This document shows, in pieces, positions 1 to 10,951 of a DNA stretch of 10,951 nt. A program made the translations under genes and the position numbers. Every line of letters begins with the position of its first letter. Position 1 is the first letter of the stretch. The notes beneath the pieces were generated by a model. The model made no database searches. It saw only the letters and a program-made list of their open reading frames with translations, and had not been told where the DNA came from. The stretch comes from a virus (taxonomy: Duplodnaviria; Heunggongvirae; Uroviricota; Caudoviricetes): IMG/VR virus record IMGVR_UViG_2693429774_000016, one strand, 5' to 3'.

Positions 1-180
1 GCTTATATTCCTACAGGGATTGCTTATGCTATCTGGTCAGGAGTCGGTATTGTCCTGATTAGCTTACTATCATGGGGATTTTTCGGCCAACGGTTGGACC
101 TGCCAGCCATTATAGGCATGATGTTGATTTGTGCCGGTGTGTTGGTTATTAATTTATTGTCACGAAGCACGCCACATTAA
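1..180 (+). CDS. emrE: SMR-family multidrug efflux transporter EmrE, C-terminal 59 codons (5' end lies outside the window)
   Basis: Frame 1 translation [59 protein letters not shown] ends at TAA 178-180 and matches the C-terminus of E. coli EmrE as I recall it, with one conservative I/V difference. Recalled sequence, not a database hit. Confidence 0.9.
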
Positions 181-210
181 AAATAATTTGTTTTTAAACG
201 ACTAAAATAT

Positions 211-255
211 GGAGGCTCGTATATTTATATGGGCCTCGTTTTATGCTTTTTGTTA
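211..255 (+). terminator. Weak candidate intrinsic terminator downstream of emrE
   Basis: Short GAGGC (212-216) / GCCTC (233-237) stem with an AT-rich loop, followed by a T-rich stretch GTTTTATGCTTTTTG. The stem is only 5 bp, so this is tentative. Confidence 0.25.
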
Positions 256-435
256 ATGTCTTTAGTTTTTATTCATTCTTTTGTGCTTTCAAGATTATGG
301 TGTAAGAAAATTGCAATACGATTATTGTTGTATATTCAAGATAATGTGACCTTAATTGTCTTTTTAAATAAAAATTAAACAAAAATCATATCTCACCACT
401 AAGGTTTATAAAAGCATACTTTAGCAGGTGTCACC

Positions 436-1962
436 ATGAAAAAAGCCATAGCATATATGCGATTTTCATCACCAAGTCAGATGTCTGGTGATTCATTAAA
501 CCGCCAGAGAAGGCTTATTACTGAATGGCTAAAGGTAAATAGTGATTATTACCTTGATACCGTAACGTATGAAGATTTGGGGTTAAGCGCATTCAATGGA
601 AAGCATGCACAATCAGGAGCTTTTTCGGAATTTTTAGATGCTATAGAACATGGTTATATATTGCCAGGGACTACATTGTTAGTTGAAAGTCTGGACAGAC
701 TTTCAAGAGAAAAAGTCGGTGAGGCGATTGAGCGTCTGAAATTGATTTTGAATCACGGTATTGATGTTATAACTCTTTGCGATAATACAGTCTATAATAT
801 TGACTCATTGAATGAGCCATATTCATTAATAAAAGCCATACTTATAGCACAAAGGGCAAATGAAGAAAGCGAGATAAAGTCAAGTCGGGTTAAATTATCA
901 TGGAAGAAAAAACGGCAGGATGCACTGGAGTCAGGCACGATTATGACGGCGTCTTGTCCGAGATGGCTCTCATTGGATGACAAAAGAACGGCTTTTGTTC
1001 CAGACCCCGACAGGGTGAAAACTATTGAGCTAATTTTTAAACTCAGGATGGAAAGGCGCTCATTGAATGCAATAGCCAAGTATTTAAATGATCATGCTGT
1101 AAAGAATTTCTCAGGAAAAGAAAGTGCATGGGGACCTTCTGTAATTGAAAAATCATTAGCGAATAAAGCTCTGATAGGTATATGCGTACCTTCATATCGT
1201 GCAAGAGGTAAAGGAATAAGTGAAATCGCTGGCTATTATCCCAGAGTCATATCAGATGATTTGTTTTACGCTGTGCAGGAAATTCGGTTGGCACCTTTTG
1301 GTATTAGCAATAGTAGCAAAAATCCTATGTTGATAAATCTACTTCGAACAGTTATGAAGTGCGAGGCTTGTGGTAATACCATGATTGTTCATGCGGTATC
1401 TGGAAGTTTGCATGGCTATTATGTTTGTCCGATGAGAAGACTGCATCGATGTGACAGACCATCAATAAAGAGAGATTTGGTTGATTATAATATCATTAAT
1501 GAGTTGCTTTTTAATTGTAGTAAAATCCAACCAGTTGAAAACAAGAAAGATGCTAATGAAACTTTAGAGTTGAAAATTATTGAGCTCCAGATGAAAATTA
1601 ATAATTTAATTGCTGCATTATCTGTTGCGCCTGAAGTTACCGCTATAGCAGAAAAAATCAGAGTATTAGATAAGGAATTACGAAGGGCTTCTGTATCATT
1701 AAAAACTTTGAAGAGTAAAGCGGTGAGTTCACTTGGTGATTTTCATGCTATTGACTTAACCAGTAAAAATGGGCGAGAGCTATGTCGTACACTTGCCTAT
1801 AAAACATTCGAAAAAATCATAATCAATACAGATAATAAAACCTGTGATATCTATTTTATGAATGGCATTGTTTTTAAACACTATCCTTTAATGAAAACAA
1901 TATCCGCCCAGCAGGCGATAAGTACTCTCAAATATATGGTTGATGGTGAGGTTTATTTTTGA
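436..1962 (+). CDS. ybcK: Large serine recombinase (resolvase/invertase-type catalytic domain plus zinc-ribbon recombinase domain); likely prophage integrase/recombinase
   Basis: 508-aa ORF with SD AGGTG 5 nt upstream of the ATG. N-terminus YMRFSSPSQ fits the serine-recombinase catalytic-Ser motif. A Cys-x2-Cys ... Cys-x6-Cys segment (CEACGNT...YYVCPMRRLHRCD) is typical of the zinc ribbon of large serine recombinases, followed by a coiled-coil-like region. Size and position directly after emrE match the K-12 DLP12 gene ybcK; the symbol is from memory. Confidence 0.85.
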   Translation: MKKAIAYMRFSSPSQMSGDSLNRQRRLITEWLKVNSDYYLDTVTYEDLGLSAFNGKHAQSGAFSEFLDAIEHGYILPGTTLLVESLDRLSREKVGEAIERLKLILNHGIDVITLCDNTVYNIDSLNEPYSLIKAILIAQRANEESEIKSSRVKLSWKKKRQDALESGTIMTASCPRWLSLDDKRTAFVPDPDRVKTIELIFKLRMERRSLNAIAKYLNDHAVKNFSGKESAWGPSVIEKSLANKALIGICVPSYRARGKGISEIAGYYPRVISDDLFYAVQEIRLAPFGISNSSKNPMLINLLRTVMKCEACGNTMIVHAVSGSLHGYYVCPMRRLHRCDRPSIKRDLVDYNIINELLFNCSKIQPVENKKDANETLELKIIELQMKINNLIAALSVAPEVTAIAEKIRVLDKELRRASVSLKTLKSKAVSSLGDFHAIDLTSKNGRELCRTLAYKTFEKIIINTDNKTCDIYFMNGIVFKHYPLMKTISAQQAISTLKYMVDGEVYF

Positions 1963-2073
1963 GTAATAATCACTTTTTCAACCGTGCTATAGTAAGAAAG
2001 TTAGGTAAGTACAATAAAATTATCTATCCTGAACGAAGCGTCCTGAGCTATGGTTTTACTATAGGGACTGCCA

Positions 2074-2373
2074 ATGGATGCTGGCGTTCTCGTTCTAGCA
2101 GTTCAACAATACCCAATCACAAAACAATTCACTGATAACAAACTTTGTGCACGTGCTTGGTTATGGCGAGCAGGTGATGTGATGTTAACTGCCTGCCAGA
2201 ACGTTACTCCACTACTTCAGGTTGCGGAGCACCGCGAAGCCGGCCGCTTTACTTCTATCGAGCAAGAATATCCCCAGATACTCAACAGAGCGCGAGCAAT
2301 CCTCGCCAGAGAAACGGCACATGTAAAATTCCAGCCGTGGCTGGATGATAAGTGGAGTCGAGTGTTACCATAA
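2074..2373 (+). CDS. Hypothetical protein (99 aa), unknown function; possibly phage cargo or a gene remnant
   Basis: ORF with a GGGA-type weak RBS and a good stem-loop plus T-run terminator 45 nt downstream. No family recognised from the sequence. Confidence 0.45.
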   Translation: MDAGVLVLAVQQYPITKQFTDNKLCARAWLWRAGDVMLTACQNVTPLLQVAEHREAGRFTSIEQEYPQILNRARAILARETAHVKFQPWLDDKWSRVLP

Positions 2374-2416
2374 TTCCGTCAGAATCTGTTCCAATAAAGT
2401 CACTAGTTAGAAATAC

Positions 2417-2456
2417 TGCCAGCATTCTACGATGACGGAAGTGCTGGCATTTTTTG
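2417..2456 (+). terminator. Rho-independent terminator candidate
   Basis: TGCCAGCA (2417-2424) pairs perfectly with TGCTGGCA (2442-2449), with extra TTC/GAA pairing inside, followed by TTTTTT at 2451-2456. Confidence 0.55.
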
Positions 2457-2631
2457 GGTAATATGCGAGTCCATTTCATAAAATACGGGTGCTGTAAACT
2501 GGACGATATAATCTAAAATATACCATTACCAGTAGCGTTCAAATCGCTATGTGCCGATACGGATAAAATTATATTGATTGTGCACATACCTTATTGGATA
2601 TTACTGAGGGGTATTTATATAAGGTGTAACG

Positions 2632-3141
2632 ATGATGTGGAACTTTGACAGTGCCGACTTAAGTGCAATAGCAGCAGGTATTTCTGCGTTTGGCACATTA
2701 GCCGCAGCGGGGTCGGCGCTTGCAAGTTGGTACACGTCAAAAAAAGCGCTGCAGCTACAAAATAGAGTTTACCTTTATGAGTCTTTAAAGGCTTGCGCTG
2801 AGAGAGCCAATTCATCAGCTAAAGATAAGCGCGGATCTGAATGGAGCGTTAATGATGCAGCGGATATCATCAGGTGCCTAGTACGGGCGATGGAGATCAT
2901 CAAGCAGGATAGCCAGCAGAAAGAAGGTAATCAGGCATTAATGTTGAAACAGTACTTTGTTAATCTGCTAATAATGGAACTGTACGAGGAAGTTCATAAC
3001 GGTGATGCGGCTGATTCTGTTTTTAAAAGTACGGAACCTACACAAGTACTTGATAACTTATGGAGCAAATGGCAGGAGGCTATAGCTTTTTTTGATATTT
3101 GGAATTACCCAGTTGCGACTGAGGAAGACTTGGCAGACTAA
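2632..3141 (+). CDS. Hypothetical protein (169 aa) with an N-terminal hydrophobic, probably membrane-spanning segment and an acidic helical C-terminal domain; unknown function
   Basis: SD AAGGTG 5 nt upstream of ATG 2632. Residues ~10-35 (LSAIAAGISAFGTLAAAGSALASWY) form a hydrophobic helix. No recognisable family. The K-12 DLP12 neighbours ybcL and ybcM, as I recall them, are not here. Confidence 0.6.
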   Translation: MMWNFDSADLSAIAAGISAFGTLAAAGSALASWYTSKKALQLQNRVYLYESLKACAERANSSAKDKRGSEWSVNDAADIIRCLVRAMEIIKQDSQQKEGNQALMLKQYFVNLLIMELYEEVHNGDAADSVFKSTEPTQVLDNLWSKWQEAIAFFDIWNYPVATEEDLAD

Positions 3142-3335
3142 TTTTCAGCACATTTGATTTCCAATAATCAACCAGCCATAATCATGCCATTGGGGCCTGA
3201 ACAACTCCGGTGACTTCTGCGCTAAACGGGGACGTTTATGCGCACATACAATCCAACCTCTCTTCTCCATTCACAGATGCAGAAATGCACCTGCGATATT
3301 TTGCATCCAGCGTTTGATCTCTGCGGAGGTGAAGC

Positions 3336-3590
3336 GTGAACCTCCCACAAGATGGTATCAAATTGCATCGCGGTAACTTCACCGCTATCGGTCGGCAGAT
3401 CCAGCCTTATCTGGAGGACGGCAAATGCTTTCGCATGGTGCTTAAACCGTGGCGCGAGAGACGCAGTCTTTCCCAGAATGCACTCAGCCACATGTGGTAC
3501 AGCGAAATCAGTGAATACCTCATCAGCAAGGGTAAAACGTTCGCCACTCCAGCTTGGGTATCCGCACCGGCGGGCGCGTGCTGGCGGTAA
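3336..3590 (+). pseudogene. ybcN: NinB/YbcN-family protein, 5' fragment, truncated by fusion to tail-fibre DNA
   Basis: GTG start with GGAGG 8 nt upstream. The first ~73 codons contain WRERRSLSQNALSHMWYSEISEY, resembling the conserved RSLDQN...W core of lambda NinB and the recalled K-12 YbcN. Homology ends at about 3552 and the reading frame runs into J-like sequence. Confidence 0.55.
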
Positions 3591-4537
3591 ACAGCCAGAC
3601 CCGGACGCTGACGCTCGACCGTGAAATCACGCTGCCATCTTCCGGCACCACGCTGATAAGCCTGGTTGACGGGCAGGGGAGTCCGGTCAGCGTGGAGGTT
3701 CAGTCCGTCACCGACGGCGTGAAGGTGAAAGTGAGCCGTGTTCCTGACGGCGTTGCTGAATACAGCGTATGGGGGCTGAAGCTGCCGACGTTGCGCCAGC
3801 GCCTGTTCCGCTGCGTGAGTATCCGTGAGAACGACGACGGCACGTATGCCATCACCGCCGTGCAGCATGTACCGGAAAAAGAGGCCATCGTGGATATTGA
3901 GAACACCCCTGACGGCATGCAGAGTCAGGTGCTGCTGGCGGCGGACAGGATTGCGATGGTTAATCCTGCGAATGGCAACACAAAACCGATGTTTGTTGGT
4001 CAGGGCGATCAGATATTCATGAACGACGTGTTCCTGAAACGCCTGACGGCCCCCACCATTACCAGCGGTGGAAATCCACCGGCATTTTCCCTGACACCGG
4101 ACGGAAAGCTGACCGCTAAAAATGCGGATATCAGTGGCAGTGTGAATGCGAACGCCGGGACGCTCAACAATGTCACGGTAAATGAAAACTGTACGATTAA
4201 GGGCATGCTGGAGGCGACTCAGGTCAGAGGTGACTTCGTTAAAGCTGTATCCAAATCATTCCCGAAACAGGCTGGTACGTGGGGTAATACGGAAACACCA
4301 AACGGGACGGTTACAGTCACCATCAGCGATGATCATAACTTTGACCGTCAAATCATTATTCCGCCCATTATCTTTAACGGAATAGCGTATAGCGATCCGG
4401 GAAGTGGTAATATTGGTGCTCATACGCACTCCGTTGCGATTGGCTCACATGGACACACCATCACCGTTAACGCTGCTGGTAACGCGGAAAACACCGTCAA
4501 AAACATCGCATTTAACTACATTGTGAGGCTTGCATAA
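3554..4537 (+). CDS. Lambda J-like host-specificity / tail-tip protein fragment: central segment plus C-terminal region with internal deletion and a divergent C-terminal tip; likely a remnant
   Basis: Translation contains [22 protein letters not shown]...[18 protein letters not shown]...[35 protein letters not shown] and later [56 protein letters not shown]. Both match lambda J segments as I recall them, but the intervening J sequence is missing and the last ~60 residues differ. No genuine N-terminus: the ORF begins at a TTG just after the ninB-like junction. Confidence 0.7.
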
Positions 4538-5121
4538 TGGCATTCAGAATGAGTGAACAACCACGGACCATAAAAATTTATAATCTGCTGGCCGGAACTA
4601 ATGAATTTATTGGTGAAGGTGACGCATATATTCCGCCTCATACAGGTCTGCCAGCAAACAGTACCTATATTGCACCGCCAGATATTCCGGTAGGCTTCGT
4701 GGCTGTTTTCAACAGTGATGAGGCATCGTGGCATCTCGTTGAAGATCATCGGGGAAAAACCGTCTATGACGTGGCTTCCGGCGACTCGTTATTTATTTCT
4801 GAACTCGGACCTCTACCGGAAAATATCACCTGGTTATCCCCGGAAGGGGAGTTTCAGAAGTGGAACGGCACAGCCTGGGTGAAGGATACGGAAGCAGAAA
4901 AACTGTTCCGGATCCGGGAGGCGGAAGAAACAAAAAACAGCCTGATGCAGGTAGCCAGTGAGCATATTGCCCCGCTTCAGGATGCTGCAGATCTGGAAAT
5001 CGCAACGGAGGAAGAAACCTCGTTGCTTGAAGCCTGGAAGAAGTATCGGGTGTTGCTGAATCGTGTTGATACATCAACTGCACCTGATATTGAGTGGCCT
5101 GCAATCCCTGTTATGGAATAA
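4537..5121 (+). CDS. tfa: Tail fibre assembly protein (lambda Tfa family), apparently full length
   Basis: 194-aa ORF beginning [39 protein letters not shown], near-identical to recalled lambda Tfa. Its ATG overlaps the upstream stop (TAATG), the usual fibre/chaperone coupling. Confidence 0.9.
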
Positions 5122-5240
5122 TAGTTTTGTGATATGCCGCAGAAACGTTATATGCAATAACGTGCTGCGGTTGGCTGATGTACTTTCGAGAGTGTATTGA
5201 ATAATTTCCAACCGTCATTAATTTTATTTATTTTTTGTAT

Positions 5241-5264
5241 GAGAGGATTTGAACCTCCGAGCCT
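5241..5264 (-). other. tRNA-Pro 3' fragment (T-arm relic), probable integration-site scar or module junction
   Basis: Minus-strand sequence TCGGAGGTTCAAATCCTCTC (plus 5241-5260) has a canonical T-arm (GGAGG stem, TTCAAAT loop, CCTCT). It matches the T-arm region of E. coli tRNA-Pro (proL-type) as I recall it over about 20 nt. No acceptor stem, CCA end or 5' half is present. Confidence 0.5.
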
Positions 5265-5454
5265 CGACACCTTATGACAACGCGATATTGCCTTGATGAC
5301 CGCCATGTGCCAAAATAACCAATTGATAAATAAGTTGATTTTAATTGGTTGGAAGCAAGTCAGGTCAAATTCAGCATTCCGCTCTCTGTATCGGATAGTT
5401 AAATTTTTCTATAACTGATAGTAATATGTTAAAACTCACACAGATAAATTATCA

Positions 5455-7437
5455 TTGCTCAACAAGTATAATGGAGTTCCCGTGGATACAGCAGAACATG
5501 ATGGCAAGTTTGCTTGGGCTAGTTTTTATGAGGCTTTTGCCAACGCGTTACTGACTTGGCGAAATCGTAGAGATGAATTAGTCAAAGGTATTCATCTAAT
5601 TGCCTCGGGTGTGGAAGGAATGTCCCATCTGCAGGACAAATCTATTATGGGAGAGATCTTTCCCTTAAAAGACATTTGTCCGTTTACTACTATGGGCTTG
5701 TTCAATCGTAACTTGACCGACAGCAATCGCAAAATTATTGCTGCCAAGCTAGCGAATTTGTTGGGCGTGAACGAACCGATTCCTGACTCCTTTGCCGGAA
5801 TCCCTCTGTTGAATAACCAAAAATCTTGGTTCTTTGGTTATGAAAAGTCACGCGACCCTAATGACATTGAATGCTTGTGGGAAATGTTCTCACAGGCAAT
5901 GATCTTTGCGGATAACCAGAATACTAACTCTGCAGACTTCACTGCCGCATATGACATCGCTTCTACAGTAATGAATGTCGGTTGGAATCTCACCATGGGG
6001 TTGTACTGGACCCGTCCTTGGTTCTACCCCACTTTAGATAGCCAGTCGCAGTATTACATTCAGACAGTGTTAAACATTAAGATCATTAAAAACGGGGCAA
6101 AAGGTCGCTGTAGTGGACAAAGTTACCTGAGTCTTATGCGGGCGCTGAACGAGGTCTTTACCCAACCAAACTATCCGGTTCATTCTTTCCCAGAACTTTC
6201 CTTATCAGCGTGGAATACAGATCTTAGCCAGTCTAAAGATGAGGTGGCAAATAGAACGTGGAAAGCCTCTTTACTGAATAAAATTAAGGCGTTATGCCTG
6301 AAAAAAAATGGCCCTTATTTCACTGCTTCGGAGTTGGAAGAAAACTACTTGGACGTATTCAAGGTAGAGCATCCTGAGAGCAAAACTGTTACAAGCTCAA
6401 TCTACTTTTATCTACAGAAACTATGCAATGATGATGAGTTAAAGTCCCTCGAGTCCGGAAATTATGAATACCTGAATTTTGAGAAAAACGAATCCCAGAC
6501 GATAACTGAGGAAACTGTCGAAGAGAGTGCGCTGTTGCCAAAACTCACCCACGTTCCTTATGACATCAGTCATCTGGTGCAGGATGGCTGTTTCTTGGAA
6601 GAGGCTAAGATCCAACTCACACTTCAGCGCCTGATCGACAAGAAAAACCTGATATTACAAGGACCACCCGGAACTGGAAAAACTTGGTTAGCGCGACGTC
6701 TGGCGTACTGCTTGATGGGAGAAAAAGCACCTGAGCGTATTAGCGCGGTGCAATTTCACCCGAACCTCTCTTACGAAGACTTTATTCGAGGCTGGCGTCC
6801 AGGTAAAGAAGGGCAATTGACGCTAATTGATGGACCTTTTGTAAATGCAATCAAAACTGCAGTCAATAATCCTACCTCGAAATATGTGGTGATAATTGAA
6901 GAGATTAATCGTGGCAATCCGGCGCAAATCTTCGGTGAAACACTCACGTTGATGGAAGCAGATAAACGCACGCCGACTGAGGCATTATCTCTTTCCTATC
7001 CTAAAAATGCTGATGAAAAAATATACATTCCTGAGAATCTATATATCATCGGTACGATGAATATTGCAGACCGCTCACTCGCACTACTTGACCTAGCGCT
7101 GCGCCGTCGTTTCGCGTTTATCGATCTAAAGCCAGCTTTTAATGACGCGTGGAGAAACTGGGTAAATTATAATTACGCAATTGATTTTGACATGTTAGCA
7201 TTCATCAAATCTCGACTGACGGTATTAAACGATATGCTGGCAAAAGATGTTACCTTAGGACCACAGTTTTGTATCGGTCACAGCTATGTCACCCCAGCTA
7301 TCGGCCAAAAAATCAACGATGCCCAGGCTTGGTATGAACAAGTCGTTGATACAGAGATCTGCCCTTTGCTCGCCGAATATTGGTTCGATGCTCCAAATAA
7401 AGTCGATGAAGCCAGAAAAGTGTTATTAGCAAAATGA
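5455..7437 (+). CDS. McrB-like GTPase subunit of a type IV modification-dependent restriction system, with an unrecognised ~400-aa N-terminal domain
   Basis: C-terminal ~260 aa align to recalled K-12 McrB: Walker A GPPGTGKT (6661-6684), Walker B-like VVIIEEINRGN, GTP-specificity motif MNIADRSLA, and RRRFAFIDL. The ORF begins at TTG 5455; GTG 5482 preceded by GGAG with a 5-nt spacer may be the true start. The N-terminal domain resembles nothing I recognise. Confidence 0.85.
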   Translation: MLNKYNGVPVDTAEHDGKFAWASFYEAFANALLTWRNRRDELVKGIHLIASGVEGMSHLQDKSIMGEIFPLKDICPFTTMGLFNRNLTDSNRKIIAAKLANLLGVNEPIPDSFAGIPLLNNQKSWFFGYEKSRDPNDIECLWEMFSQAMIFADNQNTNSADFTAAYDIASTVMNVGWNLTMGLYWTRPWFYPTLDSQSQYYIQTVLNIKIIKNGAKGRCSGQSYLSLMRALNEVFTQPNYPVHSFPELSLSAWNTDLSQSKDEVANRTWKASLLNKIKALCLKKNGPYFTASELEENYLDVFKVEHPESKTVTSSIYFYLQKLCNDDELKSLESGNYEYLNFEKNESQTITEETVEESALLPKLTHVPYDISHLVQDGCFLEEAKIQLTLQRLIDKKNLILQGPPGTGKTWLARRLAYCLMGEKAPERISAVQFHPNLSYEDFIRGWRPGKEGQLTLIDGPFVNAIKTAVNNPTSKYVVIIEEINRGNPAQIFGETLTLMEADKRTPTEALSLSYPKNADEKIYIPENLYIIGTMNIADRSLALLDLALRRRFAFIDLKPAFNDAWRNWVNYNYAIDFDMLAFIKSRLTVLNDMLAKDVTLGPQFCIGHSYVTPAIGQKINDAQAWYEQVVDTEICPLLAEYWFDAPNKVDEARKVLLAK

Positions 7438-8555
7438 CGACAATAACCGGGAGTGAGCAACATACAGCATCACGTATTCCCATGCGAAATATCTGGATGC
7501 TGATGCTGTACGCTTCAGATCTGTTTCGCCAGTTAGGGCGCAATCAGATCGCAGTAGAAGATAACCCAGCAGAAATCCCCGACCTGGTGGCGACAATCCT
7601 CCTTCATGAGATTACGCTGCGCCGACGTCGCAATTTAAATATGGGATACCAAACTTGTCATGCGGCCCTGAACCGGGTGAGAGGGCGCATTGACATACTG
7701 TATACTGCCAGTCATCAACTGCTGGAACGGGGACAGGTTGCCTGCCATTTTCAAGACATAACCCTCAACACCCCCCGAAATCGCTATGTTCGCTGTGCGT
7801 TAGAACGTCTGGCCTCAATCATAGTGAAACCGTCTTTGGCGGCAGATTGCCATTTTATGGCAATATCACTTCGCCGTGAGGGGATAAATGGAGGATATCC
7901 TGCCCCCCGCGAATTACCCTCAGTGTGGCGTTTTGGACGCCATGATGCCGCAGATAAACCGATGGTCGATGCCGCACGATTAGCTTTTGAACTGCTGATG
8001 CCGACCGAAGATCAAGGCCAATATCTTTTACCTGCGCCCTCAAATAACCTTTACTGGATGAGAAGACTATTTGAAAAAGGTATCGCTGGCTTATATCGTG
8101 TACACCTTGCCAAAACAACTTGGCAGGTCTCTGCAGGGAAAGAGCTGAAATGGGCGTTGAGCGATCAAAGTGCAGGTAGTGCAGAGATTTTCCCGACAAT
8201 GAAGTCAGACATTATTCTGGAACACAAGACTGCCCAGCGGCGTATTATTATCGATACCAAATTTAATTCGATTCTGACAAAGGGTTGGCATCGGGAGCAA
8301 TCACTACGTAATGGCTATATTTATCAGCTATATACCTACCTTAGAACACAGGAGAACAAGACGGATCCGCTTTCGCTCAATGCCGCTGGTCTTCTACTTC
8401 ATCCAGCTGTTGGCTATATGCTTAATGAGTATGTTGTCACTCAGGGACATAAGATCCATTTTGCTACAGTAGATATGACGGTAGATGCTAAAGCAATTAA
8501 AAAACAATTGCTGGCAATAGCCCATGATTGTGCAGGAGTCGCGGTTGATGACTAA
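7434..8555 (+). CDS. McrC-like PD-(D/E)xK endonuclease subunit of a type IV restriction system
   Basis: 373-aa ORF whose ATG overlaps the McrB-like stop (ATGA at 7434-7437). The N-terminal PMRNIWMLMLYA resembles K-12 McrC PVRNIYYMLTYAW. SDIIL ... IIIDTKF parallels McrC TDITI ... IVDAKYY, so the catalytic D ... D-x-K appears intact. Confidence 0.85.
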   Translation: MTTITGSEQHTASRIPMRNIWMLMLYASDLFRQLGRNQIAVEDNPAEIPDLVATILLHEITLRRRRNLNMGYQTCHAALNRVRGRIDILYTASHQLLERGQVACHFQDITLNTPRNRYVRCALERLASIIVKPSLAADCHFMAISLRREGINGGYPAPRELPSVWRFGRHDAADKPMVDAARLAFELLMPTEDQGQYLLPAPSNNLYWMRRLFEKGIAGLYRVHLAKTTWQVSAGKELKWALSDQSAGSAEIFPTMKSDIILEHKTAQRRIIIDTKFNSILTKGWHREQSLRNGYIYQLYTYLRTQENKTDPLSLNAAGLLLHPAVGYMLNEYVVTQGHKIHFATVDMTVDAKAIKKQLLAIAHDCAGVAVDD

Positions 8556-8911
8556 CCATCCTATAAGGCACTGGCTGTAATATAATCAATAGTTTCAATT
8601 AAGTAGCTGTTATCCGTGCTTAGTCATCATATGACGCACCACGGTCTAATTTTCCTGCTCATACATTGATATATCCTTGTCGTGCCCGGAAAGTCGCAGT
8701 CCACTATGAGGTATACCGATTGCCAGCACCAAAAGCTTCTTTGTGATTATTATATCGGGGAATGCCTATTTTTTTAGTGACAATATCAGATAGCAATTAA
8801 TAAGCGGTGCCGGTAATGGATGTTATGTTTAATGTATAGACACAGCCATCATAAACTAAACGTCTGTTGTTCGCTCATAACCGACATTTATCTCAGTTAT
8901 GGAGGATAATT

Positions 8912-8992
8912 ATGTATGCAGATAATGGGGCAGACAGTCGTGGAGTAAACAAGGTTTTGCACTGCTTGGCGGCATCGTTATCTTATTTTTAA
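8912..8992 (+). CDS. Candidate small ORF (26 aa, MYADNGADSRGVNKVLHCLAASLSYF) with a strong Shine-Dalgarno; speculative
   Basis: GGAGG at 8901-8905 sits 6 nt upstream of ATG 8912; stop TAA at 8990-8992. It lies in an otherwise ORF-free arm. No homology recognised. Confidence 0.2.
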   Translation: MYADNGADSRGVNKVLHCLAASLSYF

Positions 8993-9255
8993 TTATGTGC
9001 CTCTTAACATAAGTTGGGACAAAACAGAGACACATAAGGTCTCACAAAGGTCTGCAAGGCCTCACATGTATTGAGATGTTAATAAAATGTAGACTTGTAA
9101 TTTGGATATAAATGGTAGAGAAAACCTTTCCCCAAAATAAAAACGAACGTCAATGAAATCAAACGGTTGAATAAAGTTTATTTTGGCTAATAAAAAGACA
9201 ATAAAATAATTTTTATCGTTAAATATCAATGACTTGAATTCATGGTTTTTATATA

Positions 9256-9420
9256 CTGCTGCGCCATATGGGTTGGACTGAAGCGGCTGACCTGATTGTT
9301 AAAGGTATGGAAGGCGCAATCAATGCCAAGACCGTAACTTATGACTTCGAACGTCTGATGGAAGGCGCTAAGCTGCTGAAATGTTCAGAGTTTGGTGAAG
9401 CGATCATCGAAAACATGTAA
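9256..9420 (+). pseudogene. icdC: Isocitrate dehydrogenase 3' fragment (icdC-type attachment-site duplication), last ~55 codons only
   Basis: Translation [54 protein letters not shown] matches the C-terminus of E. coli Icd as I recall it. The sequence upstream of 9256 is non-coding and AT-rich, so this is an isolated fragment. Its length, about 165 bp, equals the icd duplication known for e14-type integration. Confidence 0.85.
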
Positions 9421-9443
9421 TCTCTCCATGTGTTAAATATTGA

Positions 9444-9475
9444 AACGGGCGTATAACACGCCCGTTGTTTTATTT
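9444..9475 (+). terminator. Rho-independent terminator (icd-type), placed between the convergent icdC fragment and iraM
   Basis: AACGGGCG (9444-9451), loop TATAACA, CGCCCGTT (9459-9466), then GTTTTATTT. Confidence 0.8.
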
Positions 9476-9522
9476 ATGTGGATATTATTAATAGCATATC
9501 GAGCATATTTATATGAAGCCCA

Positions 9523-9846
9523 TTACTTGAGCCCATATGGGCATATTTTTATAATGCAACTATTATGTAAACATTTATTTGTTATTTTGCTTTCTCCTGG
9601 AGGACACTCTTGACTGCTTTTGAGTAAACTCCATAAATCCTTGTTGAATGGTGCGATGTGATAAATAGTAATAGGATATTCTTTATCCTTAAGGATAATA
9701 CCAGACTTAACCGGTGTAAATATACTGCCAGGAGGGAGAAATATAGTAGATTGATACCAGATGATCATTTTCATATTACCCCATATGGCTGAAAAAGATA
9801 TACCACATGTAGGTTGAATTACCGTGTCAATTACTATCCACTTCAT
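9523..9846 (-). CDS. iraM: Anti-adaptor protein IraM (inhibits RssB-mediated RpoS degradation)
   Basis: 107-aa minus-strand [35 protein letters not shown]... matches K-12 IraM (formerly YcgW) as I recall it in length and sequence. Its position next to icdC agrees with the K-12 gene order. Confidence 0.85.
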
Positions 9847-10309
9847 TTGTTATGTCTTATCCCACGGTATTTAATATGGTTCATTAGGATGTTTATTTCT
9901 TGATTTTGCATATGAGTATATTACCCCCCCCCTCAAAAAAATAAATTAATTAAAATGATGGCTTATATAAAATAAAATTTAAAGCAAGGAATCTCAATGG
10001 ATGTTAAACAAAATGAGATTTTGTGAAAGCAATAAATTATTGACTTCGTTTTAGATTTGTTTAGCTATAATGTTATACATTCAAATGACTGAACATCCTG
10101 TAATTAAAACATAGCCTTTATGCTACTTTGTGCCAATTTGCTAAACATTATGGTTGCCTTTTTATATAACGATAATAATGAATATAAGCATGACATGAGA
10201 ATAAGGTTTCAATTTTTGAGTTATATAGGAATGATTTAACCTGTTCCTGGCTAAAATACATATAACCGGATGATGACTAAACCAAAATACATGTGCGTTA
10301 AGTATTGAA

Positions 10310-10337
10310 ACGGACGTGTGGCACGGCCGTTGTTTTT
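10310..10337 (+). terminator. Second, degenerate icd-type terminator copy (stem-loop plus T-run)
   Basis: ACGGACGTG / CACGGCCGT stem with one mismatch, followed by TGTTTTT. The preceding ~25 nt (CATGTGCGTTAAGTATTGAAACGG) closely resemble the sequence before the 9444 terminator (CATGTGTTAAATATTGAAACGG). Confidence 0.5.
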
Positions 10338-10546
10338 ATAAATATGTTAACCGTTATAAAATAACGTATCAAAAGTCAAGTGATCACATTTCAAATATCA
10401 AGTTGATAGTATTAGTCTGGTGATTATTTATGGGTGACAATAAAAAGACAGTATTAATCATCCATAGAGATAGTCTCTGCACTTTTATTTCCATTATGCT
10501 AATGCCTTACTGAATTATGAAGCATTTCTTAAGTATCCAACTTTAG

Positions 10547-10951
10547 CTAGATTAATGGTTTATTATTTTCTACATCTTCAATATATAAAAGCGTATTATC
10601 AATGGCGTAGTAACTGCGTTTGTTATGATTAACATCAGTAACCCACCGGAAAACGCCCGCACCTGCCAGTGTTGAACAGTATTCCCGAAATGTAGATTTT
10701 CCGCAAATATGAAGCAATGCGGCCTCTTTTATTTTAGCAGGGTTCTTGGTCGTACTAACTTTTAACAGGTTCCTGGTTCCTCTTAATAACAAAACCGTAT
10801 CATCGTGAGTAATAATTCTGATGTTATCCGTAGCCAGATAATAAATGTAATGTGCAATACGGTGATGTTTTAATTCTGAATAAAACCAGGAGAAGTTTTG
10901 CTCTTTTCTCACTTGCTCAAACATCTTTTGAAAAACAACGACCTGATCCAT
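10547..10951 (-). CDS. ycgX: Conserved hypothetical protein (YcgX-like); start codon is the last three bases of the window
   Basis: 134-aa minus-strand ORF beginning at the window edge (reverse complement of CAT at 10949-10951). In K-12 the gene next to iraM is ycgX, a protein of this size. Symbol assigned by synteny and memory only. Confidence 0.6.
   Translation of the reverse strand: MDQVVVFQKMFEQVRKEQNFSWFYSELKHHRIAHYIYYLATDNIRIITHDDTVLLLRGTRNLLKVSTTKNPAKIKEAALLHICGKSTFREYCSTLAGAGVFRWVTDVNHNKRSYYAIDNTLLYIEDVENNKPLI

Follow-up and report, generated by a model that had tools for sequence, protein, structure and literature searches.

McrBC is the textbook example of modification-dependent restriction, and its specificity resides wholly in the N-terminal head of McrB. 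In the EcoKMcrBC system of Escherichia coli K-12 this head is a reader domain of 160 amino acids (aa) of the DUF3578/ADAM type that flips methylcytosine, and the genes lie in the chromosomal immigration control region (hsdRMS, mcrBC, mrr). Here we describe a prophage-borne gene pair coding for a McrB-like protein and McrC in a DNA stretch of 10,951 nucleotides (nt), in the following called the window, from the virus record IMGVR_UViG_2693429774_000016. The McrB protein of this system has probably exchanged the methylcytosine reader of K-12 for a different head composed of two modules, the domain DUF8425 and a winged helix.

Related heads have been noted in earlier surveys. Helbrecht et al. (2024; PMC11037411) listed the architecture NTD-wH-NTPase/McrC, with an N-terminal domain (NTD) and a winged helix (wH), as a putative type IV restriction group and as candidate readers of N6-methyladenine (6mA); the NTD was of unknown function and activity was not measured. 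In the passages searched, the survey of McrB heads by Bell et al. (2024; PMC11090510) mentions neither a winged-helix nor a glycosylase-like head. In the END nucleases, which restrict hypermodified phage DNA, inactivated EndoIII/Ogg-like domains act as sensors, and the same sensor is also fused to a McrB-like GTPase (PMC12191111, bioRxiv 2025). The locus presented here is a member of the NTD-wH-NTPase/McrC group. Its head architecture was catalogued in 2024 and is uncharacterised, and the identity of the NTD as DUF8425 is added here. In contrast to the description of the group in PMC11037411, the NTD thereby receives a name and appears as the constant element, whereas the winged helix is optional and degenerate in E. 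coli. A first-pass annotation of the window had considered the specificity of the system to be probably different and undescribed. It very probably differs from that of K-12, but the architecture had already been listed (PMC11037411).

A McrB GTPase preceded by a head unlike that of K-12

The locus resembles EcoKMcrBC in its AAA+ GTPase with Walker A and NxxD motifs (the latter as defined for McrB in PMC11090510), in a McrC partner with a DUF2357/McrBC domain and a PD..DxK motif and in the gene order mcrB-mcrC. A PDB sequence search matched aa 360-643 (~280 residues) of the McrB-like protein to residues 168-450 of K-12 McrB (6hz4/6ut6) with an E-value (E) of ~1e-75. The K-12 N-domain (DUF3578/ADAM) was left unmatched in this search, full-length McrB (6ut6) being aligned just from residue 168. 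The NCBIfam McrB equivalog NF008457 scored 262 bits against a cut-off of 637, and model positions 176-452 alone were matched. A K-12-type N-domain was rejected, as the PDB and NCBIfam matches were confined to the GTPase. Instead of the 160-aa reader, the protein carries ~370 aa in front of the GTPase, made up of DUF8425 (aa 8-247), the winged helix (aa 247-330) and a linker (~338-371). The first-pass annotation had proposed an unrecognised N-terminal domain of ~400 aa that differs from the K-12 reader. This region is real, ends at position 6660 just before Walker A, is translated and conserved, and is indeed unlike the K-12 domain; it is somewhat shorter than assumed and consists of two domains and a linker.

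A further difference from K-12 lies in the Walker B motif, which contains D-E in K-12 and E-E here. The codons GAA GAG, as read previously, were confirmed. Their interpretation as a peculiarity of this gene was not borne out by an alignment of homologs. E-E was present in 56 of the 57 closest relatives with a readable motif, and the 82 more distant DUF8425-McrB representatives were divided between E-E (35) and D-E (47). Judged from these sequences, E-E is a recurrent conservative D-to-E variant of this McrB branch and no anomaly, and a loss of GTPase activity through it is not expected.

An open reading frame (ORF) of 660 aa starting with TTG covers 5455-7437. The GTG at 5482 is the more likely start codon because it is preceded by a GGAG sequence, is the RefSeq start of WP_000379040.1 and aligns with the first residue of orthologous proteins: Met1 of the Enterobacter and Leclercia orthologs ('MDAVEQD...' or 'MDAAEKD...') is located opposite 'VDTAEHD' of the window protein. 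Codon 56 of the TTG ORF, the earliest ATG in this frame, was ruled out as a start, given that family-conserved residues appear from aa 10-12 of the GTG protein. Since conservation begins there and orthologs start at the same codon, the N-terminal region must be translated, and a start far downstream, which had been envisaged before, is impossible. A perfect TATAAT is present at 5466-5471, just 10 nt 5' of the GTG, and a matching -35 element was not found. A short ORF in another frame (5426-5551, MLKLTQINYHC...) begins with an ATG at 5426 and overlaps the start of the mcrB-like gene. A literature search found no paper on the WP_000379040 protein.

DUF8425 is the constant element of the head

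The first 243 aa had no match in the Pfam (E<=10), NCBIfam (E<=10) and PADLOC (E<=0.01) libraries, the Pfam copy searched being older than PF28527 and lacking that model. The assignment to PF28527 (DUF8425) was obtained via the precomputed annotation of homologs, which stems from a newer Pfam release. A search with aa 1-371 retrieved 283 proteins, and the first ~240 aa were 47-73% identical across Enterobacteriaceae, Desulfuromonadaceae, Syntrophobacteraceae, Acidobacteriota, Omnitrophota, Spirochaetales and others. The domains annotated in these homologs were PF28527, PF17726 (DpnI_C, in a subset), PF28529 (McrB_lid) and AAA_5. Membership of aa 8-250 in PF28527 is based on identities in this same range to >100 proteins annotated with the family.

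A profile search with DUF8425 yielded 2435 clusters (50% identity) at E<=1e-3 and 937 at 1e-30, and the McrB AAA_5 domain was found in 60 of 63 full-length representatives. Domain architectures were counted in 104 representatives that contain both DUF8425 and Walker A. DUF8425, single or tandem, was the sole extra domain in 31 of them. In another 47 the N-terminus is extended by 100 aa or more and DUF8425 lies immediately ahead of the GTPase, and in ~26 the GTPase is preceded by an insert of 100 aa or more, at the position taken by the winged helix in the window protein. Tandem DUF8425 domains in two or three copies occurred in ~14 of 146 representatives. Accessory helix-turn-helix (HTH) domains vary in kind and include DpnI_C, Mrr_N following DUF8425 and HTH_24 preceding it. 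These architectures identify DUF8425 as the constant part of the head, with the winged helix as an optional accessory.

Several other contexts of DUF8425 were observed. An additional N-terminal domain of ~155 aa in relatives (WFVGA...GDxIAIK...EWYFYT...), which is not present in the window protein, looks EVE/PUA-like by eye; it matched the UPF0310 protein MJECL36 (PDB 2p5d) with E 0.34, and one member matched Pfam EVE with E 0.6. A rare context outside McrB is a 'FRG domain-containing protein' encoded on plasmids of Bacteroidales (Bacteroides/Parabacteroides), which contains ~190 aa of DUF8425. A DUF8425-McrB is encoded on a 177-kb plasmid of Deinococcus radiodurans. On a metagenomic chromosome (L004), a stand-alone divergent DUF8425 paralog of 251 aa (4948-5703), in which the conserved Asp is missing, precedes a DUF8425-McrB/McrC operon. 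The operon is followed at 9269-10429 by a 386-aa NucS_C (PD-DExK) protein with an unassigned C-terminal part of 260 aa. This protein recalls the END nuclease of the NucS-like kind (PMC12191111), but it was discarded as a link to END, as similarity to DUF8425 was not detected.

Fold of DUF8425 and its possible relationship to DNA glycosylases

Structure prediction, which had been suggested for identification of the head, revealed a winged-helix fold at aa 247-330 and an all-alpha DUF8425 domain. The AlphaFold model of aa 1-255 contains one small hairpin in addition to the helices and has a predicted local distance difference test score (pLDDT) of 92.8 and a predicted template modelling score (pTM) of 0.91. 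Across 149 DUF8425 domains P67 and W133 are invariant. The most conserved motif resembles a helix-hairpin-helix (HhH) element with an Asp after it. Of the 149 domains, 102 have N and 29 have K at position 169 within this motif, where the window protein has Asn; at position 186, D occurs in 133 and E in 10.

A Foldseek search with the model returned, among the top 50 hits, almost exclusively HhH-GPD glycosylases from five families (SsOgg, MjOgg, Tm1821, OGG1 and MutY). The best match was weak (E 0.22, probability 0.6, TM score ~0.3). At the sequence level, the DUF8425 profile had no match among PDB sequences at E<=10. We also compared an alignment of Ogg2 (MjOgg and relatives) with two DUF8425 alignments, one of them comprising the 149 diverse domains, using hhalign. 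The hhalign scores ranged from 13 to 22, and the full domains gave no signal. The C-terminal halves were collinear (HhH hairpin, Asp, YL and ELxLxxW) in an alignment that is not significant. There, GVGW-N of DUF8425 is placed opposite GIGY-K129 of Ogg2, one column off register at the Lys, and LD186 opposite D147, in register in one run and shifted by a single column in the second; Y215-L faces Y172-L, and ELSLxAW faces ELDLYLW198. The score of 13.1 for the C-terminal halves was equalled by 38 of 150 column-shuffled controls (25%). Homology between DUF8425 and Ogg2 is not claimed because the score falls within the range of the shuffled controls.

A divergent DUF8425 copy (P0347, first copy, aa 159-211) matched Pfam DUF6308 (E 1.2e-4) with a score under the gathering threshold. 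This hit coincides with the HhH-like motif '...VGPVKLSQALYAVRPRHYPVLD...' of P0347, which suggests that DUF8425 and the likewise uncharacterised DUF6308 have an HhH-like element in common. A literature search found no paper mentioning DUF8425 or DUF6308.

An Ogg/EndoIII-like origin of DUF8425 is plausible, with the larger share of probability lying against it. We put forward tentatively that DUF8425 might be an Ogg2/EndoIII-type (HhH-GPD) domain that has diverged strongly and that flips and inspects non-canonical bases. In that case the locus would play the part of an END nuclease among McrBC systems, with a broad-range sensor for hypermodified phage DNA (e.g. modified guanines or glucosylated hydroxymethylcytosine) coupled to a GTP-driven translocating nuclease. 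Both systems would share type IV defence and a helical sensor related to HhH-GPD proteins, the structural neighbours of DUF8425 being Ogg2, OGG1 and MutY. In contrast to END, a Pfam scan (E<=10) of 45 DUF8425 domain sequences found neither the END sensor PF21790 nor HhH-GPD or Ogg-HhH, and the comparison with the Ogg2 profile remained at noise level. Moreover, the END effectors studied are single-chain nucleases of the PLD or PD-DExK type and not McrBC. The signature [N/K]-x16-[D/E] of DUF8425 parallels the split between monofunctional and bifunctional HhH-GPD enzymes, and the ~20% of domains with Lys may still excise a base. If the proposal were true, ~2,400 clusters and ~6% of complete E. 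coli genomes would contain an unrecognised glycosylase-derived sensor of DNA modification.

The same data bear on the idea that DUF8425 does not read DNA at all and serves as a regulatory, oligomerisation, partner-binding or small-molecule-binding domain, so that accessory domains or the GTPase-McrC core would read the DNA. Such a role would agree with the very high conservation of the domain across phyla, its many invariant polar residues (R30, D64, T69, N75, R83, D186 and Y215) and the frequent presence of extra reader-like domains either N-terminal to or after DUF8425, as well as with the lack of significant similarity to known DNA-binding folds. We regard it as unlikely: DUF8425 is the sole non-GTPase domain in the 31 representatives mentioned above, its tandem duplication is typical of reader modules, and its structural neighbours, weak as they are, are DNA glycosylases that bind flipped bases.

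The winged helix is of the DpnI type and departs from its family

The middle segment of the window protein matched Pfam DpnI_C (PF17726) with E 0.037, and orthologs matched with 3.7e-7 and 2.8e-12. A profile built from this segment of the family matched the C-terminal winged helix of DpnI (4esj_A residues 185-256) with E 1.3e-12. Consistent with this result, the AlphaFold model of aa 244-371 displayed an H-b-H-H-b-b winged-helix topology with pLDDT values of 84-91 over aa 253-333. The domain has both the fold and family-level sequence homology in common with the winged helix of R.DpnI. It differs in being fused to a GTPase instead of a PD-(D/E)XK nuclease and in two functional residues. In DpnI, K229 and R231 are each required for winged-helix function (PMC4117772). 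Their aligned counterparts are Ser and Tyr in the window protein, and the corresponding columns elsewhere in the family hold T/S and A/N/S. For this assignment the numbering of 4esj was taken as native +3, the sole offset that places K and R at 229 and 231. In addition, the window protein departs from three near-invariant positions of its own family (NNN to ESK, LRD to LCN and F to S), residues of the recognition helix included.

E. coli and Enterobacter are Dam+. Since other residues stand in place of K229 and R231, and Dam+ hosts keep the operon stably, we infer that Gm6ATC is not the target of the system. A related possibility is that the winged helix is the real sensor, that N6-methyladenine outside the Dam GATC context is restricted and that DUF8425 is a structural or regulatory spacer. 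The match to the DpnI domain is clear in both fold and family profile, and winged-helix fusions to four types of nuclease are 6mA-dependent (PMC11037411). We consider this reading improbable. Most DUF8425-McrB proteins are devoid of a winged helix, and where an accessory HTH exists it can be Mrr_N or HTH_24 instead. The DpnI residues K229 and R231 are replaced, and the E. coli copy, with its borderline DpnI_C match, lacks the three near-invariant residues. Finally, a 6mA/GATC motif was reported for merely ~10% of winged-helix fusions (PMC11037411).

McrC and the prophage setting

The positions of all features are compiled in Table 1.

Table 1. Features of the mcrB-like/mcrC locus and of the prophage end in the window.
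Feature	Position	Strand	Basis
McrB-like gene, 651 aa, DUF8425 - winged helix - linker - AAA+ GTPase	5482..7437	+	identical to RefSeq WP_000379040.1
Shine-Dalgarno sequence GGAG, 6 nt 5' of the GTG start	5472..5475	+	sequence reading
DUF8425 (Pfam PF28527), aa 8-247, proposed target-sensing module	5503..6222	+	homologs 47-73% identical with PF28527
Most conserved DUF8425 motif VGWNLTMGLYWTRPWFYPTLDS, aa 166-187; HhH-like, then Asp	5977..6042	+	domain alignment
DpnI-type winged helix, aa 247-330	6220..6471	+	family profile and model
Acidic linker, predicted disordered, aa ~338-371	6493..6594	+	pLDDT <50 at model residues 95-119 and 125-128
McrB AAA+ GTPase and lid	6586..7410	+	aligns to K-12 McrB residues 176-450; Pfam AAA_5 8e-27
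Walker A GPPGTGKT	6661..6684	+	sequence reading; fits GxxGxGK[ST]
Walker B IIEEIN (VVIIEEIN; hhhhDE pattern with Glu as the first acidic residue), E-E = GAA GAG at 6898-6903; K-12 IIDEIN	6892..6909	+	sequence reading
McrB signature NxxD (NIAD), inside GTMNIADR (7051-7074)	7060..7071	+	sequence reading
mcrC, 373 aa, ATG overlaps the mcrB stop codon (ATGA)	7434..8555	+	Pfam McrBC 5e-21; NCBIfam McrC equivalog 356 bits vs cut-off 338
McrC nuclease motif SDI...IIDTKF (PD..DxK), aligned to K-12 TDI...IVDAKY	8205..8264	+	alignment to K-12 McrC
Duplicate of the icd 3' end (icdC-like, attR), right end of the prophage	9257..9473	+	92.6% identity to the genuine icd 3' end in FORC064

The ATGA overlap indicates translational coupling of mcrB and mcrC. 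The mcrC product is distant from its K-12 counterpart, the PDB match to K-12 McrC having merely E 2.6e-15. The K-12 segment aligned to its nuclease motif is presumably the D244...D257-x-K259 motif. RefSeq places the mcrC start at 7482 (357 aa), and certain database entries use the 373-aa form. The RefSeq start is probably 16 codons too short, because the McrC models and the K-12 alignment begin at residues 12-15 of the 373-aa form.

The window lies at the right end of an e14-like prophage that is integrated in icd of the E. coli chromosome. It is 100% identical to strain FORC064 over 4411-9016 and 99.6% identical over 8988-10951, and the two stretches are separated by ISCro1 in that strain. 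The ORF at 9268-9420 within the attR duplicate encodes the Icd C-terminus, and iraM and ycgX come after attR, as in K-12. The gene pair is the last cargo ahead of attR. In e14 of K-12, mcrA occupies this slot, the interval between the tail-fibre/pin (pinE) module and icdC. EcoKMcrA is likewise a type IV restriction enzyme located between a tail-fibre/recombinase module and icdC; in contrast to the present system, it is a single, NTP-independent chain with an unrelated NEco reader and an HNH nuclease.

The 3.4-kb stretch with both genes was detected in 309 of 5426 complete E. coli genomes (~6%), every time on the chromosome. The exact sequence of the McrB-like protein occurs in at least 1000 contigs, where its record is named merely 'AAA family ATPase'. 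The surroundings of the operon are a target of insertion sequence (IS) elements in FORC064 and ML35. In FORC064, ISCro1 (IS66 family; locus 12847-15462) was inserted ~460 bp 3' of mcrC near window position 9016. In ML35, an IS3-family transposase underlies the match, and the gene is annotated there as 'McrB family protein'.

Positions 1-4410 of the window are unlike the e14-like prophage of FORC064. This divergent left part indicates that the prophage is a mosaic. It encodes a large serine recombinase of 508 aa (436-1962; Resolvase, Recombinase and Zn_ribbon_recom) and a 169-aa ORF without family match (2632-3141). A chimeric tail-tip/fibre ORF with a rich G+C content of 56-59% follows at 3554-4537. 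A full-length match to Rfam IS009 (214 bits, 4880-5078, plus strand) lies within the tail-fibre assembly gene (4537-5121).

A decaying remnant that is inactive in E. coli is highly improbable: three deviating winged-helix positions, a non-canonical Walker B, a non-ATG start, the cryptic-prophage setting and IS elements inserted beside or within the operon of certain strains (ISCro1 in FORC064, IS3 in ML35) might be taken as signs of decay, but both ORFs are intact with at least 99% identity over the 3.4-kb stretch in 305 of the 309 matching genomes, all catalytic motifs are preserved, E-E is the norm of the clade, and the GTG start has a good Shine-Dalgarno sequence and coincides with the starts of orthologs.

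Discussion

The locus is a real and probably functional variant of type IV restriction. By homology with EcoKMcrBC, a hexamer of the GTPase would recruit McrC, and GTP hydrolysis would drive translocation and cleavage once the N-terminal heads are positioned on target sites. The anatomy of the family points to DUF8425 as the primary target-recognition module, which would anchor the complex on DNA, and to the winged helix as an optional accessory that may add non-specific or auxiliary DNA affinity. With regard to the biology of the host, the target would be a modification that E. coli does not itself make, modified or hypermodified phage bases being the most plausible candidates. Recognition might, speculatively, proceed through base flipping into an Ogg-like pocket.

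Several points weigh against this interpretation. The sole attempt at purification of a complex of the NTD-wH-NTPase/McrC type failed (PMC11037411). The extra N-terminal domain of ~155 aa is conserved in about one third to 45% of relatives and might be the true reader there. The conservation of DUF8425 (47-60% identity across phyla) is unusually high for a reader and would fit an enzymatic or partner-binding role as well. Copies of the operon were not found in sequenced phage genomes, and a simple consensus scan of the plus strand upstream of 5482 did not find a convincing sigma-70 promoter.

Among natural McrB heads DUF8425 ranks with the more common ones (~2,400 clusters at 50% identity), and the system described here resides in an E. 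coli prophage that is amenable to genetics. Knowing its target would assign a function to DUF8425 and show whether McrBC systems use glycosylase-derived sensors like those of END. It would also clarify how a Dam+ host tolerates a winged helix like that of DpnI. The system may hinder transformation or phage therapy in ~6% of E. coli strains, and it could become a reagent for the detection of a DNA modification.

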